From: an uncultured Gemmatimonadales bacterium
Lineage (GTDB): Bacteria > Gemmatimonadota > Gemmatimonadetes > Gemmatimonadales > GWC2-71-9
Length of the DNA stretch: 64,000 nt
NCBI GenBank assembly: GCA_963748815.1
Contig: CAVVKJ010000006.1
Coordinates: forward strand, 32,001-96,000
Direction: 5' to 3'
Below the pieces are notes generated by a model that had not been told where the DNA came from, searched no databases, and saw nothing but the letters and a program-made list of their open reading frames with translations. Both the position numbers and the translations under genes were made by a program. Below are positions 32,538-43,882 of the stretch, one piece after another (the first letter of the stretch is position 1; each line of letters starts with the position of its first letter).

Positions 32538-33380
32538 ATGCCGGTCTATCCCCTGAACATCCACCTGGGTCCGATGCAGATCACGGGCTACGGGATCATG
32601 ATGATGGTCGCCTTCCTGACCGGCGGCTGGCTCATCGGCCTCGAGCTCCAGCGCCGGGGGCTCAACCGGGAATACTCCTCCGACATCGTGATGGCGGCGC
32701 TGATCGGCGGGATTCTCGGCGCCAAGCTCTGGTACGCGACGCTCAAGGGGGATCCAGGCGCGCTCTTTTCCTTCGGCGGGCTGGTCTGGTACGGCGGCTT
32801 TCTCGGCGGTGTCGCGGCGGTGCTCGCCAACGGGTGGCGCCTCGGCGTCCCGGCACGATGGACGATGCAACTCACCGCGCCGGCCCTCGCGGCCGCCTAT
32901 GCCATCGGGCGAGTCGGCTGTTTCCTCGTCGGCGACGATTACGGCGGGCCGACCACGCTCCCCTGGGCCGTCTCGTTTCCCGAGGGCCTCCCCCCGTCGA
33001 CCGCCGGCAACCTCGCGGCGTTCGGCGTGGCGATTCCCCCGGGCCTGGACCCGACGACCCTGCTGGCCGTTCACCCGACGCAGTTGTACGAGACCGGCAT
33101 CATGCTCGTCGGGTTCACGGTGCTCTGGAAGCTCCGCACCAACGCCTGGGGCACCGGCGCCCTCCTCGGCGTCTACCTGATGATGGCAGGCGTGGAGCGG
33201 TTCTTCATTGAGATCCTCCGCGCCAAGGACGACCGATTCTTCGGCGGCTTCACGGCGGCGCAGATTACAAGCGTGCTCATCGTCCTGGCCGGTGTGACCC
33301 TCTTTACCCGCCTCCGCGGCGCCGGGGAGGCGCCGGCAGGACAGTATCTTTCCCTGACAGCACCGAACGCCGTCAAATAA
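32538..33380 (+). CDS. lgt: Prolipoprotein diacylglyceryl transferase
   Basis: YGIMM, GLVWYGG, GRVGCFLVGDDYG, HPTQLYE, RFFIEILR. Confidence 0.93.
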   Translation: MPVYPLNIHLGPMQITGYGIMMMVAFLTGGWLIGLELQRRGLNREYSSDIVMAALIGGILGAKLWYATLKGDPGALFSFGGLVWYGGFLGGVAAVLANGWRLGVPARWTMQLTAPALAAAYAIGRVGCFLVGDDYGGPTTLPWAVSFPEGLPPSTAGNLAAFGVAIPPGLDPTTLLAVHPTQLYETGIMLVGFTVLWKLRTNAWGTGALLGVYLMMAGVERFFIEILRAKDDRFFGGFTAAQITSVLIVLAGVTLFTRLRGAGEAPAGQYLSLTAPNAVK

Positions 33381-33427
33381 CGAGACAGCACGATAAGTGA
33401 CTCAGATCACATCGCTTGGGTATCGGC

Positions 33428-33468
33428 GGGCCGAAACTGTCAATTTACTTGACGATTTCGGCCCTTTT
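33428..33468 (+). terminator. Long dyad after lgt: intrinsic terminator and/or enhancer-protein binding site
   Basis: GGGCCGAAA-c-TGTCAA-tttac-TTGACG-a-TTTCGGCCC followed by TTTT. Confidence 0.6.
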
Positions 33469-33488
33469 ACTCAATCAGCCACACAATC

Positions 33489-33515
33489 GTAACTCATTGC
33501 ATTACATTGCGTTAC
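33489..33515. promoter_or_regulatory. IHF-like AT-rich dyad GTAAC-N17-GTTAC
   Basis: Minus strand reads ATGCAAtgagTTA, close to the IHF consensus WATCAANNNNTTR. Same dyad spacing as 58466-58492. Confidence 0.55.
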
Positions 33516-33528
33516 AAAGTTTTCATTG

Positions 33529-33545
33529 TTGGCACGAAGGGTGCT
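33529..33545 (+). promoter_or_regulatory. sigma54 (-24/-12) promoter
   Basis: TTGGCACG-aagg-GTGCT: GG(33531-33532)-N10-GC(33543-33544), matching consensus TGGCACG-N4-TTGCW with one mismatch. Confidence 0.75.
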
Positions 33546-33555
33546 TTAATAGATA

Positions 33556-33707
33556 TCCAGCAAGGGGCGACTTCCTGCCCCCGGAAAAAGTGGTAGGTCG
33601 AAGAAGGGTTGGAGCGGGCACATCCGCCCGTCTCCGTATAACTCAGGGGGCGATCTACCACCTCTCTACGCAAGCGGCCCGCCGGATTCGGCGGGCCGTT
33701 TGCATTT
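33556..33707 (+). ncRNA. Candidate structured small RNA (~150 nt), family not recognised
   Basis: Bounded by the sigma54 promoter and a terminator. 5' hairpin at 33564-33581 and a long interrupted hairpin at 33590-33661. No credible ORF with an RBS. Confidence 0.6.
33670..33707 (+). terminator. Intrinsic terminator hairpin, possibly bidirectional
   Basis: GCAAGCGGCCCGCCG-gatt-CGGCGGGCCGTTTGC followed by ATTT. The convergent FTR1 gene ends at 33733. Confidence 0.8.
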
Positions 33708-33732
33708 CCGTCCGCCGCCCGCTGTCGCGGGA

Positions 33733-35850
33733 TCAGCGCCGCGCGTGAAGCCGGGCCTTGAGGCGTTCGACTTCGGCGCGCAACTCCGCCAGGTCGGCGT
33801 CCATCCGTTCGAGCGAGCGCATCAAGTCCACTTCGAACGGGACGGCCGAGCCCGGTTCCCTGGTCGGGACGTCCACGTGGACCGGCTCGCTGGGTGGCAG
33901 CGGATCGGGAACCAGCTCCTGCGTGACGCGCAGGCGGCGCGGCTCGAGATAGAAGGTCCAGATCAGGGCGCCGACGAACAGCAGCACCAGTATCCCCTGC
34001 GCGCTCAGCGACTCCACGGTCCGGTAGATCCCCAGCCGCTCGATCTGCGGCGCCCACGACACCACCGTGATCGGCACCACCCCGCCCCCCTGCAGCTCGG
34101 CGATGCCCTTCCCGAGGAACACGAACGCCATGTAGTAGAGGAAGGCGCTCGTGACGCCGAAGAACGGCTTGAGCGGCAGCCGGACGCCGAACCGATTGAT
34201 CAGCACGTACACGATCGCCAGCACGACCGAGGCGGCGGCGATCCCGAGCACCACCGGCCAGACCGCGCCCGAGGCCGGCCCGGCGACCAGCAGCGCCTTG
34301 TAGAAGAGGACCGTCTCCACCCCCTCCCGGTACACCGCCAGGAACGCCACCGAGGGCAGCGCGAACATCGACCCGGAGACCAGCGCGTCCTGCACCTTGC
34401 CCTTCACGAACCGATTCCACTTGGCGACTTCCATCTTCGAGAGCAGCCAGTAGCTCACATAGAAGAGGGCGACCGTCGCCACGAGCATCGTGATGCCCTC
34501 GAGCACCTCCTGGCTGGCCGGCGAGAAGCGGAAGATGGTCTCGAACGCCACCGCCGTGAGCAGGCTGACGACGATGGCCGCACCAACGCCGATGTGGATG
34601 TCCCGCCGGCGCTGCGCATTGCCCGTCTTCACGAGGAACGCGATCAGCGCGCCGATGAGCAGGATCGCCTCCAGCCCCTCCCGCAGCAGGATGACGAACG
34701 ACTGGACGAAGAGGTCCGTGGTGGTCATCGGTTTGCCGAGGATCCGCTCGGCGCGGGCGAGCCCGGCGGCCAACTCGGCGCGGAGCGACTCCAGCTCGGC
34801 CGGCGTGGCCCCCCCGCCCGCCCGGCCCCGGAGCGTCGCAAACCCGGCCTCGAGCTGCCCCGCGAGCGACGGGTCGATGGCGCGGAGCCCGGACTCGACC
34901 TGCTCGAAGGTCAGGTAGGCCTCGAAGGCCTCGCCGCTGGCCCGCTCGCTCTGCCCGGCGGCAGCCAGCACCAGCACGGAATCGAGCTTCCGGTTCACGT
35001 CGGCGAAGATCGCCTCGGCCTGCACCCCCGACTCCTGGGACTGGAAGCTCCGGACCGCGGCGATGGCCGGTGCGGCCCGGTCGAGCGGAGCGCCCAACGC
35101 CTCGGCGATTTGCCGGTCGGACATCCGTGCCGTGGTGCCGAAGGGTCGGAGTCCGGCGGGGACGTCACCCGCCGGCGCGGGATACCGCAGGAGGGTGGCA
35201 TATGCAGCGGCGGCCCAGCGGTCCGCGGCGCTCAGCCGAGTCTCGAAGGCGGGCATCGCGGTCCCCGCGACTCCGATCGTGACGCGGCGGTAGAAATCGA
35301 GTGGCGAAACATCCACTAGGCGCACGCCATCGGTCAGCGCGGAAGGTGGCGGGGTCAGCCCGAGGCCGGCCGGGCCATCGCCTCGGCCGGCCGGGCCATG
35401 ACAGTCGGCGCAATGCTGCTGATACACCTGCGCCCCGCGCGCGAGCGGGGGCGCCGTCCCCGGGACCTGGTCGACGTCGACGCGGTAGCGCTCCGCGAGA
35501 CCGCCCGTGACAGTGCGCGCGCCGACGGCCACCGAATCGGGATCCGCCGTCCGGGCGACCGCCGCGATCAGCTGATCAATGGCCTTGATAGTCGATGCCG
35601 AGGACTCTGGCGGGAGTCGCTCGGCGGTCCGGCGGGCCTCGGCGAGGAAGAGGTTGGCCTCCTCGACCTCGGCGGGAGAGATGACCCGCCCCTCCGAGAC
35701 GCCGATCCGGTACTCCTGCGCCGCGAGCTGGACGGTCGTCGCGATCCGTTGCACGATGGGCGCGAGGTCCGCGGCAGGCTGCACCGACTGCACCCCCTGC
35801 TGGGGGGCGGCGGCGAGGAGAACTGAGGCGGCTACAGAGATGAGAATCAT
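33733..35850 (-). CDS. Cytochrome c / FTR1-family iron permease fusion
   Basis: Signal peptide, CADCH haem motif, two RExxE motifs (REGLE, REGVE), multiple TM helices. Confidence 0.93.
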   Translation of the reverse strand: MILISVAASVLLAAAPQQGVQSVQPAADLAPIVQRIATTVQLAAQEYRIGVSEGRVISPAEVEEANLFLAEARRTAERLPPESSASTIKAIDQLIAAVARTADPDSVAVGARTVTGGLAERYRVDVDQVPGTAPPLARGAQVYQQHCADCHGPAGRGDGPAGLGLTPPPSALTDGVRLVDVSPLDFYRRVTIGVAGTAMPAFETRLSAADRWAAAAYATLLRYPAPAGDVPAGLRPFGTTARMSDRQIAEALGAPLDRAAPAIAAVRSFQSQESGVQAEAIFADVNRKLDSVLVLAAAGQSERASGEAFEAYLTFEQVESGLRAIDPSLAGQLEAGFATLRGRAGGGATPAELESLRAELAAGLARAERILGKPMTTTDLFVQSFVILLREGLEAILLIGALIAFLVKTGNAQRRRDIHIGVGAAIVVSLLTAVAFETIFRFSPASQEVLEGITMLVATVALFYVSYWLLSKMEVAKWNRFVKGKVQDALVSGSMFALPSVAFLAVYREGVETVLFYKALLVAGPASGAVWPVVLGIAAASVVLAIVYVLINRFGVRLPLKPFFGVTSAFLYYMAFVFLGKGIAELQGGGVVPITVVSWAPQIERLGIYRTVESLSAQGILVLLFVGALIWTFYLEPRRLRVTQELVPDPLPPSEPVHVDVPTREPGSAVPFEVDLMRSLERMDADLAELRAEVERLKARLHARR

Positions 35851-35855
35851 TATCA
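35841..35855. promoter_or_regulatory. Fur box overlapping the start of the iron permease
   Basis: Minus strand TGATAAT-G-ATTCTCA versus the 7-1-7 consensus TGATAATnATTATCA (one mismatch). Confidence 0.75.
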
Positions 35856-35904
35856 AGTCGTTTAGTCGGCGAAGCTGGAAAGTAGAGTGCGCCGCTCGGA
35901 TTCG

Positions 35905-39264: not shown

Positions 39265-40611
39265 TCAGATGTCCAGGTTCCAGCGCTTGATCTTGTTGAT
39301 CAGCGTGGCGCGCGAGATGCCCAGCTCCAGCGCCGAGCGGGTGCGATTCCCGCCGTGGTGCCGCAGCGTCCGTTCGATGTGCTGGCGTTCCAGTTCCTCG
39401 AGGGCCAGCGGCGTGTGCCGGCGGTCGCCAGGTCCGGGGCGGGCCCGGAACTCGCCGGGCAGGTGCTCGACGCCGACCGCCGCCTGCCCCCGACCGAGGA
39501 TGAGCGCCCGCTCGAGCACGTTCCGCATTTCGCGCACGTTGCCCGGCCAGCCGTAGCCGAGGAGGCGCTCGAGCGACTCCGCGCCGACTTCCGGCGGTCC
39601 GTCCGGCAACTCGGTGCGCAGGTCGTTGAAGATCCGGGTGATCAGCGCGAGCCGGTCGTCGCGGGAGCGCTCCCGGACCGCCGGCAGCCGCACCGGCATG
39701 ACGCTCAGCCGATAGTACAGGTCCTCGCGAAACCGGCCCGCCTCGACCTCGGCGGCCAGGTCCTTGTTGGTCGCGGCGACCAGTCGCACATCCACCGTGA
39801 TTTCCCGGGTGCCGCCCAGCCGCCGGAAGGTCTTGGTCTCGAGCACCTTCAGGAGCTTCGGCTGGAGCTCCAGCGACAGGTCGCCAATCTCGTCGAGGAA
39901 GATCGTCCCGCGATCGGCGATCTCGAAGAGTCCCTGCTTCCGGTCTTTCGCGTCGGTGAAGGCCCCCTTCTCGTGGCCGAACAGCTCGGAATCGAGGAAG
40001 GTGGCGCTGAGCCCGGCGCAGTTGACCTCCACGAACGGCATCCGCGCACGCGGGCCGAGGTTGTGGATCATCCGCGCGACCCAGCCTTTGCCGCTACCGC
40101 TCTCCCCCAGCAGGAGGACGGTGGTGCGCTCGCTCTGCGCCAGCAGGGAAATCTGGTGGGCGAACGCCTTCATCGTCGCCGAGCCGCCAAGCGAGTCGAG
40201 CCCGTGCCCGGCGCCCCCCTGATTGACCAGCGCCTCGTTGACGCGCCGGAGCCGGGCCTTGTCCGCCACCCGCGCGGCGGCCGCCGACAGGTGCGTCATG
40301 TCCACCGGCTTCGAGAGGAAATTCTCCGCGCCCAGCTGCATGGCCCGCACCGCGGTAGGGACGTCGCTGTTTCCCGTGAGCAGGATGACCCCCGCGTCCC
40401 GTTCACGGAGCTTTTCCAGCACCTCGAGGCCGTCCATGCCGGGGAGGTGCAGGTCGAGCATCACGACGTCGGGGTGCAGCCGGTCGTACGTGGCCAGCCC
40501 GGCCTCCCCGCTGAGTTCGCGGGTGACCTCCCAGCCGAGCTGCTCGAAGTAATTGCCGATCGCGCGGAGGACGTCCGTGTCGTCGTCGATCAGCAGGACG
40601 GAACCGATCAT
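39265..40611 (-). CDS. NtrC/AtoC-family sigma54-dependent response regulator
   Basis: REC (IDDD, LDLHLPG, KP), GESGSGK, GAFTDA, FLDEIG, WPGNVREM, Fis-type HTH. Confidence 0.96.
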   Translation of the reverse strand: MIGSVLLIDDDTDVLRAIGNYFEQLGWEVTRELSGEAGLATYDRLHPDVVMLDLHLPGMDGLEVLEKLRERDAGVILLTGNSDVPTAVRAMQLGAENFLSKPVDMTHLSAAAARVADKARLRRVNEALVNQGGAGHGLDSLGGSATMKAFAHQISLLAQSERTTVLLLGESGSGKGWVARMIHNLGPRARMPFVEVNCAGLSATFLDSELFGHEKGAFTDAKDRKQGLFEIADRGTIFLDEIGDLSLELQPKLLKVLETKTFRRLGGTREITVDVRLVAATNKDLAAEVEAGRFREDLYYRLSVMPVRLPAVRERSRDDRLALITRIFNDLRTELPDGPPEVGAESLERLLGYGWPGNVREMRNVLERALILGRGQAAVGVEHLPGEFRARPGPGDRRHTPLALEELERQHIERTLRHHGGNRTRSALELGISRATLINKIKRWNLDI

Positions 40612-40615
40612 CGTG

Positions 40616-43600
40616 TCACCTCGCGCCGCGGCCGGGGTGCCGCGGGAGTTCGAACCAGAGACGCGCCCCGCCCCCCGGGCGGTTCTCGGCGCGGATGTCG
40701 CCGCCGTGGGCGCGGATGATGCCGTGCGAAATCGAGAGCCCGAGCCCGGTGCCCTCGCCGGCAGGCTTCGTGGAGAAGAACGGTTCGAAGATACGCGCCA
40801 TCACGTCCGGCGGAATACCGGACCCGCCATCGAGCACTTCGAGCACCACCATCGGCCCGTCCCCCCACGCCCGCACGGAGCCGGTCGCCCCGGTCGCGCG
40901 CATCGCGTGGGCCCCGTTCGACAAGAGGTTCAGCACCACCTGCCGGATCTGGTCGGGATCGGCGTGGACCGGGGGCAGGTCCGCGGGAATGTCCACCGTC
41001 CAGCGCCCGAGCCGCTCCCCGCTGGCGCTGACCGCGTCGCGCACCAGCGCACCCAGATCGAGCTCCGTCCGGCGGAGCGGCCGCTGCCGCGCAAAGGTCA
41101 GCAGGTCGGTCACGATTTGCGCCGCCCGGGTCGCCTCGGTCCGGATGCTTTCGACCACCCGCCGGCTTCCTTCGTCCAGCGGCTCATCCAGGATGAGCGC
41201 CTGCGCCAGCGCGCTGATGCCGGCCAGGGGATTGTTGAGTTCGTGCGCCACGCCGCTCACCAGGCGGCCGAGCCCCGCCAGCTTCTCCGTCTGCCCGAGT
41301 TGCTCGCGGAGACGCTGTTCGTCGGTCACGTCGCGCGCAATGGCCAGCACGAGGGGAGCCCCGGCCCCTTCCTCCGCGGCGGGCACCGCCACCACCGACG
41401 CCTCGCGCACCACGCCGTCCGGGCGCCGCAGCCGCATGACGAACTCCCTCGGCTCCCCTCCCCGCACCAGCGTCAGCTGCTTGGCAACATACGCCGCCTC
41501 CGCGGGCACCACGAAATCCGCCAGCCTCGGCTCGGCCTCGCCAAACCCGGCGAGCGCGCGCGCGGCGGGATTGACCGAGCGAAGCACCCCGTCCTCGTCC
41601 AGCGTGAAGATGGCGACCGGAACCGTGTCGAACAATGCCCGGTAGCGAACCTCCGAGCGACGCAATTCTTCCGTCGCGACCCGTTCACGGGTGACATCAC
41701 GCATCAGCGCCACCGACCCCCCGGCGCCCTCCACCGGCCCCAGTGGCGCCAGCGACACGGCGAGGAGCCGCCCCTGCCCGTCGGGGCGCACGATCCGCGA
41801 CTCGAACCGCCGGGAACCGGTCCCCCCGTCCAGATCGCCGGGGAGCAGCTCGGCCAGCGGCCGCCCGTGCAGCGCCTCCTCGGGACTCCCGAACAGCTCG
41901 ACCGCGGCGGCGTTGGCGAAGCGGACGTCGCCGTGCGGGTCCGCCAGCACGATCGCGTCGTGCGCCGCCTCGACCACGAGCCGGAATCGCTGCTCGAGCC
42001 GGAGCACCTGGCTGACATCGTCGACCGCGACCACGTGCCCCCCCTCCGGGAGCGGCGTCGCGGTCACGACCAGCGATCGGCCGTCCACCGCCTCGAGCAG
42101 GGTGGTCACCCCCGAGCCCGCCGCGGTCGACAGGGCCACCGGATCCTCCCGCGTCTCGCCGCCGTCGACAAAGAGGCCATGGAACGGACGCCCGACGATT
42201 TCGGTGACCCCCACCCCCGCCAGGTCGGCGACGAATCGGTTGGCGCGCGCGATCCTGCCGGTCGCATCGAGAATGGCGAGCCCGGTGGCGGCCGCGTCGA
42301 ACGCGGTCTGCCACTCGCGCCGGCTCCGGCTGACAAGGTCGAAGAGACGGCTCTTGCCGATGGCCAGCGCCGCCTGGTCGGCAAACGCCACCGCCAGCCG
42401 GCGCTCCTCCGAGGCGTATTCCCTGGGCCGGTCGTGAAAAAAGGCCAGCACACCAATCGTCTCGTTCGCGAAGACCAGCGGCAGGAAGGCCGCGGACGCG
42501 TACCCTTCGGCGTGCACGGCCGCGGCCATCGGCGAGGCGAACTCCCGCCGCGCGTGCTCCACGAAGACCGGCCGGCCGTCGAGCAGCGAGGCCGCGGCAG
42601 GCAGGGCATGGAACTGACGCTCGAAGGCCCGGGCATACGCCTCGGAGAGCCGAATGCGCGCGAGGCAGGCCGCCGAGCGCGCTGCCCGGTCGAGGAGGAA
42701 GACGCCGGTCCGCTCCGCCCCGAAGACCCGCATCCCCTCCTCGGCGAGGAAGTGCGTCGTGCGATCGGCGTCCTCCACGCCGGTGAGAGCGTGCGCCACC
42801 CGGCCCAGCGCGTCGATCTGGTCGAGCCGGGTCAGCAACTCACCGCGGAGCCGAAGCCCGCTGACGGACGCCGCGACCTGGTCGGCCACCGCCTGGAGCA
42901 TCAGCAGGTTGTCCGCCGACGGGACGGTCCACCCGGCATCCGGACCCGACACCGTGAGGACGCCGGTGATCACCGAGCCGAACCGCATCGGCACCATGGC
43001 ACCGGGCCGATGGGGACGCGGCCGCCGCGGATCGGGCGCCGCTTCCGGCTCCCCCTCCAGGTCCGCGCTCGAGCGCGCCACGCCACTGCGCGACACCGCC
43101 ACCTGCGGATCTCGCTCGCCGAGCACGTCACCCACCCGGTAGAGCCGGGCCTCCCGCCCAAGGGCGCCGAGCACCACCAATCCGGGCAGCTGCTCGCCGG
43201 GCCGCCCGGCGACCATCGCCCCCGCGGCCTGGGCGACGGTCAGCGCCGCCTGTAATCCACGCTCGACCATCGCGTCGATCGTGCCGATCGTCGAGAGGTC
43301 GTGCGCCAGTGCCCGGAGCGCCTCGCTCCCCGCCAGCGTCGCCTCGGCGATCGCCTCGGCGGCCCGCGTCGAGTCGACAGTGCGCGTGGCCTGAATGGCG
43401 ATGGCGGCGTGGGCCGCGATGGCGGAGACGACGCCAACCGCCTCGTCGTCGTAGGCGTTCGCCCGGTACGATTGCGTGGACAGGACCCCGAGCAGCCGGT
43501 CGCCGAGCATCATCGGCGCGTGGATGGCCGACTGGCTCGGCTCCTCGGAACCGAAGGGGTTTCCGCGCTCCGCCTCGGTCGCCTCCGGGCGCCCGAGCGC

Positions 43601-43882
43601 GAGCACGCTCCGGTGGCGCACGACCCAACTGGTCGGTCCCCGGCCCAGCGGCGCCTCGGACGGCGGCAGCCGCGTGCCGCGATCGGTGTGCGCCACAAAG
43701 CGAAGGCGCTCCGTGGCGGGGTCGTACAGGGCCACGTAGAAGGCGTCGCAGTCCACGAGGGACGCCACCTGCGCCCGGAGCACGTCGTAGAGCGCGGCGG
43801 GCTCCATCAGCCGGGCCGTCGCCTCGGCGATGGCGGCGAGCACCTCGACCGGGAGCGAGCCGCCGCGATACGATCGGGTCAC
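40616..43882 (-). CDS. Soluble multi-GAF/PAS sensor histidine kinase
   Basis: About three GAF-like and three PAS-like segments; VAHELNNPL, QVVLNLLSN, DGGSGI, FEPFFSTK, GTGLGLS. GTG start at 43882 overlaps the upstream stop. Confidence 0.92.
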   Translation of the reverse strand: MTRSYRGGSLPVEVLAAIAEATARLMEPAALYDVLRAQVASLVDCDAFYVALYDPATERLRFVAHTDRGTRLPPSEAPLGRGPTSWVVRHRSVLALGRPEATEAERGNPFGSEEPSQSAIHAPMMLGDRLLGVLSTQSYRANAYDDEAVGVVSAIAAHAAIAIQATRTVDSTRAAEAIAEATLAGSEALRALAHDLSTIGTIDAMVERGLQAALTVAQAAGAMVAGRPGEQLPGLVVLGALGREARLYRVGDVLGERDPQVAVSRSGVARSSADLEGEPEAAPDPRRPRPHRPGAMVPMRFGSVITGVLTVSGPDAGWTVPSADNLLMLQAVADQVAASVSGLRLRGELLTRLDQIDALGRVAHALTGVEDADRTTHFLAEEGMRVFGAERTGVFLLDRAARSAACLARIRLSEAYARAFERQFHALPAAASLLDGRPVFVEHARREFASPMAAAVHAEGYASAAFLPLVFANETIGVLAFFHDRPREYASEERRLAVAFADQAALAIGKSRLFDLVSRSRREWQTAFDAAATGLAILDATGRIARANRFVADLAGVGVTEIVGRPFHGLFVDGGETREDPVALSTAAGSGVTTLLEAVDGRSLVVTATPLPEGGHVVAVDDVSQVLRLEQRFRLVVEAAHDAIVLADPHGDVRFANAAAVELFGSPEEALHGRPLAELLPGDLDGGTGSRRFESRIVRPDGQGRLLAVSLAPLGPVEGAGGSVALMRDVTRERVATEELRRSEVRYRALFDTVPVAIFTLDEDGVLRSVNPAARALAGFGEAEPRLADFVVPAEAAYVAKQLTLVRGGEPREFVMRLRRPDGVVREASVVAVPAAEEGAGAPLVLAIARDVTDEQRLREQLGQTEKLAGLGRLVSGVAHELNNPLAGISALAQALILDEPLDEGSRRVVESIRTEATRAAQIVTDLLTFARQRPLRRTELDLGALVRDAVSASGERLGRWTVDIPADLPPVHADPDQIRQVVLNLLSNGAHAMRATGATGSVRAWGDGPMVVLEVLDGGSGIPPDVMARIFEPFFSTKPAGEGTGLGLSISHGIIRAHGGDIRAENRPGGGARLWFELPRHPGRGAR

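Follow-up and report, generated by a model that had tools for sequence, protein, structure and literature searches.

A conserved and probably sigma54-dependent small RNA gene behind lgt in one branch of the Gemmatimonadales

Qrr, CrcZ and CrcY are enhancer-controlled sigma54 small RNAs (sRNAs) that depend on Hfq and sometimes occur in multiple copies, and CsrB, CrcZ and GlmY titrate their protein partners. In Enterobacteriaceae, GlmY/GlmZ, under GlrK/GlrR, combine a sigma54 promoter with several activator sites, two IHF sites and an occasional switch to sigma70 (PMC3045617). Pxr of myxobacteria, with PxrK/PxrR, is a clade-restricted sRNA that needs a sigma54 response regulator (PMC10217877) and has three predicted stem-loops (PMC5684412). 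In Xanthomonas, the highly structured and Hfq-independent sX13 uses a short homopolymer loop motif to act on complementary motifs near start codons (PMC3771888). Here we describe an sRNA gene behind lgt in an uncultured Gemmatimonadales bacterium (assembly GCA_963748815.1, hereafter the own genome), located in a window of 64,000 nucleotides of contig CAVVKJ010000006.1, the window being the whole stretch of DNA that was analysed.

We consider it very probable that a real, conserved and structured sRNA gene lies between lgt and a convergent iron permease gene. The original prediction was of a sigma54-dependent structured sRNA of unrecognised family; comparison of sequences supports this reading, and a sequence check located every element that had been placed between the two genes at its predicted coordinates. 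The gene and its parts are as follows.

~33556 to 33707, + strand: sRNA gene of ~150 nt, its start placed by promoter spacing.
33564 to 33581, + strand: 5' hairpin P1, variable in sequence and dispensable.
33590 to 33661, + strand: conserved core, made of an 11-bp outer stem, a purine-only internal loop, a 4-bp helix, a bulge and a 9-bp apical stem-loop.
33643 to 33652, + strand: G-run element UCAGGGGGCG, the only part retained in all forms and the likely functional seed.
33670 to 33707 (stem 33670-33703), + strand: terminator-like hairpin with a weak U-tract.

Searching the RNA against the Rfam 15 covariance models gave 20.6 bits at best, against a cut-off of 80 (E-value 0.39), and five loci with the divergent and short forms treated below gave no match, so that the family is as unrecognised as predicted. 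Our literature search found no described regulatory RNA for Gemmatimonadota and no account of this RNA, and neither the main text of PMC11109978 nor one supplement of PMC8632094 mentions Gemmatimonas. The RNA is undescribed in Rfam and in the literature searched, and its chaperone-free setting is unusual. In transcriptional wiring it resembles GlmY, Pxr and Qrr, but it is a member of none, and no Rfam match ties it to any of them. With Qrr, CrcZ and CrcY it shares sigma54 enhancer control and, at times, multiple copies, but Hfq was found in none of 20 near-complete carriers of the RNA and likewise not in a search of the own genome. With GlmY/GlmZ it shares a sigma54 promoter, activator sites and hairpins followed by a terminator, and some glmZ genes went over to sigma70 (PMC3045617), as genus g28 has here; the GlrR site, however, is TGTC-N10-GACA rather than YGTC-N9-GACR, the neighbouring genes are others, and searches of the own genome, which is 86% complete, turned up neither RapZ nor proteins with an RNA recognition motif. 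Pxr, which blocks development, is likewise clade-restricted and sigma54-linked, and is tied to a lifestyle switch, but its first stem-loop is conserved and needed, whereas the first hairpin here is neither, and the regulator gene is not adjacent here. sX13 sets C-rich apical loops against G-rich messenger RNA (mRNA) motifs, whereas the RNA described here has a single G-run in an internal loop, and no sequence similarity between the two was detected. As for decoys of the CsrB/Rsm type, the fold has no GGA loops, and CsrA was not found in six genomes (the own and five others). Two housekeeping RNAs were considered and rejected: the signal recognition particle (SRP) RNA of the own genome (RF00169) lies elsewhere, at C10:797826-797923, and 6S RNA is a rod of about 180 nt with a central bubble, compared with a core of 72 nt and no RF00013 match at this locus. 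The own genome, at its 86% completeness, gave no 6S RNA match anywhere, though transfer-messenger RNA and SRP RNA are present. An undescribed system had been proposed, and this stands in so far as the family is new and without an Rfam match; the gene is nevertheless of a known kind, an enhancer-controlled sigma54 sRNA, and present evidence points to no new kind of system.

The structure is supported by both folding energy and covariation. Positions 33556-33715 fold at -87.5 kcal/mol (z = -6.0), and none of 200 shuffles did as well. In the core, 33590-33600 pair with 33651-33661, AAGAA faces AGGGGG across the internal loop, and the apical loop is ACATCC. Among 22 diverse homologues all 527 of 527 cells were paired and 13 of the 24 pairs had changed on both sides; none of 500 shuffles reached the observed pairing and slid registers paired at 32-49%, in a shuffle test that is inflated by sequence kinship and that used a structure we had set ourselves. 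The alignments thus contain the compensatory changes expected of stems conserved in relatives, and their frequent G-U pairs assign the RNA to the + strand. The larger tallies cover 109 homologues, 9 of 118 exact-core matches having been dropped for want of flank or promoter. Over these, AGGGGG had a mean unpaired probability of 0.98. Both internal-loop strands are invariant in typical members, AAGAA being unchanged in 22 of 22. By comparison, P1 forms at -3 kcal/mol or better in 97 of the 109 while its sequence varies freely, and it is missing where the promoter abuts the core (L125, L208). The terminator hairpin reached -12 kcal/mol or better in all 109, with compensatory changes; the strong terminator of the original prediction is therefore stable and covarying as a hairpin, but its U-tract is just ATTT, and a terminator scan made no call owing to this short tract. 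An alternative fold pairing GCCCCC with GGGGGC fell away, with a probability of 0.0 in the own RNA and the required leader run of five C in only 2 of 109 homologues. The core also resembles the 5' helix of 16S ribosomal RNA and the loop of SRP RNA, in matches too short to carry weight.

Upstream of the RNA lies a promoter region with the following features, to which no strand is assigned except for the promoter itself.

33530 to 33545 (GG at 33531-32, GC at 33543-44), + strand: sigma54 -24/-12 promoter, predicted start ~33556.
33428 to 33464: dyad with the proximal enhancer (core 33438-33454), the best-scoring matrix site in the own genome.
33371 to 33387: distal enhancer YGTC-N9-GACR, overlapping the lgt stop codon.
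33489 to 33515: AT-rich IHF/HU-like bending region, with half-site enrichment.
33397 to 33410: GTGA-N6-TCAC palindrome, essentially genus-specific.

The predicted GG-N10-GC motif proved to be conserved: of the 115 homologues with enough upstream DNA, 114 carry GGCAY-N7-GC at a distance of 39-60 bases from the core. A sigma70 promoter scan of the region called none, and the own genome encodes RpoN and nine full-score sigma54 activators. The enhancer YGTC-N9-GACR came from motif discovery on 128 homologous promoters, the same set on which its matrix was trained. The proximal site, at about -93, occurs in 95 of the 128 (shuffle mean 0.4). The distal site, at about -160, occurs in 106 of the 128, whereas a control window gave 0 of 128; it is the sixth-best matrix site in the own genome. 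Neither the distal site nor the palindrome was part of the original prediction. The palindrome, which we take to resemble a CRP/FNR-type site, was present in 13 of 16 own-genus sequences and in 14 of the 128 promoters family-wide. Within the bending region the evidence is for half-sites, with CAR-N4-TTR at -32..-20 in 55 of 128 promoters (shuffles 2.1) and YAA-N4-TTG at -46..-34 in 28 (shuffles 0.65); the full IHF consensus appears in just 10 of 128. By motif inspection, the own genome has two IHF/HU-like proteins. Elsewhere in the window, at 39265-43882 on the - strand, the far end of the converging operon encodes a sigma54 response regulator, at 39265-40611, and a GAF/PAS histidine kinase, a candidate activator system. 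Several carriers, and at least one non-carrier, have similar regulators some 6-9 kb away from lgt.

Two genes flank the locus.

32538 to 33380, + strand: lgt, prolipoprotein diacylglyceryl transferase (Pfam PF01790, E-value 4e-49), the constant upstream neighbour of the RNA.
33733 to 35856, - strand: FTR1 iron permease with a fused cytochrome c domain (PF03239 and PF13442), convergent and downstream.

The position behind lgt is stable across relatives, and the gene recurs far more often than chance would allow. Wherever the flank was long enough, in 71 of 71 loci, lgt precedes the RNA on the same strand, and the cassette follows it in all 15 own-genus relatives in which lgt was located. The exact 19+21-base core was found in 118 stretches of GTDB representatives, and 79 of the 80 matches with displayed titles are Gemmatimonadota. 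The other titled match (L106) is labelled as an Actinomycetes assembly and is possibly a misplaced contig. Because an exact pattern selects invariant sequences, we built a covariance model, which matched 33 of 151 family genomes, including forms with a rewritten outer stem. A loop-only pattern matched 67 of 166 own-family genomes and, outside the family, 0 of 234, in a nearly all-or-none manner by genus. These loop-only counts, and those given below for families f3 and f2, for the strict enhancer-plus-promoter pattern and for the seed joined to a Shine-Dalgarno sequence, include the unpublished genomes G099 and G220; each adds one genome, and no claim depends on either. All 10 of 10 genomes from motif-less genera had lgt with no cassette behind it, and in six of them the FTR1 match ended at most 85 bases from the lgt stop. 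Viral contigs yielded one match, an AT-rich chance match without stems.

Divergent forms indicate which part of the RNA is retained. Loci L379 and L380 keep the G-run, while L379 has lost the AAGAA strand. In genome G328 the promoter, outer stem and G-run are kept and AAGAA is lost. In genome G348, just the G-run half and the terminator are left; this remnant follows the lgt stop directly, has no promoter and may represent a deletion relic. In genus g11 of family f3 (L170-L182), a shorter RNA behind lgt with the same enhancer was found in 12 of 27 f3 genomes and in 0 of 137 genomes of family f2. Besides a sigma54 promoter and enhancer sites in tandem, it has a single stem, a terminator and a conserved loop of 16 bases with six G at its end; it carries the G-run as UGAGGGGGGCG and the AAGAA strand is absent. 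The short form scored just 18-25 bits with the covariance model, and its putative homology with the long form draws on position, promoter and G-run. Since the G-run is present in long, divergent and short forms, it is their common denominator. Copy number varies as well: genus g25 has tandem cores within one transcript in 7 of 12 carriers, and genus g28 has two to three separate copies in 4 of 15. In g28 (L376-L378, L382), sigma70-like promoters, read by eye, replace the sigma54 cassette and each copy has its own terminator; in one genome of this genus (G110), a copy has moved upstream of grpE-dnaJ.

The enhancer points to a second set of genes. Only one other strong enhancer of the own genome is paired with a sigma54-like box in the layout expected, and it lies before an operon of DUF4402 proteins (G000:C10:798568-803919, L344), divergent from the SRP RNA gene. 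This operon encodes three DUF4402 proteins, a 202-amino-acid protein of no family and an 823-amino-acid protein with beta-sandwich domains, and its genes are conserved together in all 14 regions examined. Among the 30 best loci, 27 DUF4402 promoters had a -24/-12 box and 22 of these had an enhancer above 10 bits, compared with 9 of 540 shuffles, a test that is independent in that the matrix was not trained on these promoters. The enhancer was found at 9 of 11 sigma54 promoters in carriers and at 13 of 16 in non-carriers. From this equality we infer that the activator and operon are older and more widespread than the RNA, which would have entered the regulon in a single branch. With its secreted paralogues and its gene order, the operon probably builds an adhesive fibre of the chaperone-usher type. 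Our literature search on DUF4402 found no paper, and the AlphaFold model of the 202-amino-acid protein was unusable (predicted local distance difference test score 41). The strict enhancer-plus-promoter pattern, present in 22 of 251 genomes with many chance matches in coding DNA, was useful only for revealing the DUF4402 link. PilR is unlikely to be the activator, as the own pilA promoter scored 0.1 on the enhancer matrix. At G000:C10:145102-147012 (L345), a sigma54-like box, closely followed by an enhancer-like site, precedes DUF11 surface-protein genes.

Given these observations, we tentatively read the RNA, at slightly short of an even chance, as an Hfq-independent trans-acting regulator of ~150 nt whose G-run pairs with C-rich mRNA leaders. 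An NtrC-family protein bound at the two YGTC-N9-GACR sites, aided by an IHF-like bend, would direct sigma54 polymerase to transcribe the RNA, a step strongly supported by conservation. The same activator would drive the DUF4402 operon of secreted and probably fibre-forming proteins, as the shared motif suggests, so that the RNA would serve a programme of surface remodelling or attachment at the post-transcriptional level. Within the RNA, the stems supported by covariation would hold the G-run single-stranded, the opposite AAGAA strand being unable to pair with G and thereby leaving the run open. Without Hfq, the G-run might then pair with short C-rich tracts near the ribosome-binding sites of several, partly lineage-specific mRNAs and alter their translation, in a mirror image of Xanthomonas sX13. 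Such partners are potentially many, since the leaders of the own genome are C-rich: by our own gene calls, CCCCCT is 2.2-fold overrepresented within 45 bases upstream of the start.

A number of results weigh against the G-run acting on mRNA leaders, or against other steps of this scheme. Five target tests revealed no conserved mRNA site of 9-13 bases. The gene for a 125-amino-acid lipoprotein on contig C7 was the best of 2854 leaders at -31.7 kcal/mol, and was rejected because its site occurs only in the closest relative, G001, and is absent from the other homologous leaders fetched. The candidate murJ was also rejected, as its site is the stop-codon context of the upstream gene and its mean energy was -16.0 kcal/mol in 20 carriers versus -15.5 in 10 others. 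Besides the gene itself, 6 of 30 carriers had no perfect 11-base complement, in a search where 31 self-matches among 95 were counted by hand from the table. A seed joined to a Shine-Dalgarno sequence was not more frequent among carrier genera (14 of 58) than elsewhere (28 of 142; hand count). The pilA leader, located in 11 of 30 loci, had a weak site in three or four genomes of the own genus only and no carrier-specific site, and DUF4402 leaders had no common or carrier-specific G-run site. Predicted targets were not enriched in lipoprotein or signal-peptide leaders (p = 0.40 and 0.35). On the transcriptional side, the surroundings of the DUF4402 operon, compared over 14 regions, had no sigma54 activator that recurred consistently within ~9 kb. 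Contigs assembled from four RNA libraries include relatives' sequences that cover the core, some of which extend upstream past the promoter or span the whole locus, possibly through DNA carry-over, and 20 sequencing runs contain only 5-9% of sampled words; these data speak neither for nor against a transcript. Finally, the invariance of AAGAA is unexplained by pairing. Two further observations arose in these searches. The lipoprotein gene at G000:C7:21487 and its paralogues encode lipoproteins of ~110-125 amino acids in tandem arrays in 13 of 16 genomes of the genus. A dispersed hairpin repeat at several intergenic sites of the own genome carries an 8-base G-run complement in its unpaired 5' flank, probably by coincidence.

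The invariance of both loop strands amid variable flanking stems would be expected if the same sigma54 transcript titrated an RNA-binding protein specific for the purine-only internal loop or for the G-run. We regard such a protein decoy as doubtful, though a serious contender. The tandem cores of g25 and multiple copies of g28 fit a dosage logic, and the repeated failure to find an mRNA target fits a decoy. Against it, L379 has lost the AAGAA strand and the short f3 form does without it, the searches described above found none of the known decoy partners CsrA, Hfq and RapZ, and no candidate protein emerged. The absence of mRNA targets would also be explained if the G-run captured the C-rich loop of another sRNA, and the G-run does complement the C-rich anti-Shine-Dalgarno loops known from sX13 (PMC3771888). 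Such a sponge is improbable, as the intergenic complements of the own genome, among the matches listed, were repeats, leaders and terminator arms, with no evident partner RNA. It is highly improbable that the element instead closes the message of the lgt operon as a structured 3' end, or is a terminator region common to the converging operons, with an incidental promoter. The constant same-strand position behind lgt and the promoterless G348 remnant would suit such a cis element, whereas the conserved dedicated promoter with two enhancers, the g28 copies with their own sigma70-like promoters, one of them next to grpE-dnaJ, and the motif-less genera that have lgt and no cassette do not. A small protein gene, from a GTG at 33590 or in the 110-codon open reading frame at 33416-33748 that crosses the region despite the original claim of no credible frame, is largely refuted: the frame is open in the own genome and, among close relatives, a few changes sit at third positions, but core length modulo 3 is spread 87/15/7 over 109 homologues, frame length scatters from 11 codons up, L021 has an in-frame stop, the frame is not conserved, and a Pfam search gave no match.

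Returning to the trans-acting G-run, a broader proposal, which we think rather unlikely, is that the RNA is the first member of a class of G-run regulators that work without chaperones, in a phylum-level lineage that lacks Hfq and CsrA. An open purine loop would offer the G-run to the C-rich tracts ahead of ribosome-binding sites in these bacteria or to an undescribed RNA-binding protein, a sigma54 activator shared with the DUF4402 fibre would make the whole an attachment switch, and the class would come in two shapes, long in family f1 and short in family f3, at the same locus and with the same enhancer. The RNA has a defined promoter and enhancer motif and is linked to a co-regulated surface-protein operon of unknown function, and its natural variants single out ten bases as the working part. 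Three questions thereby become testable: how sRNAs act without Hfq or CsrA in this group, which is abundant in soil and sediment; which activator recognises YGTC-N9-GACR; and what the products of the DUF4402 operon form.
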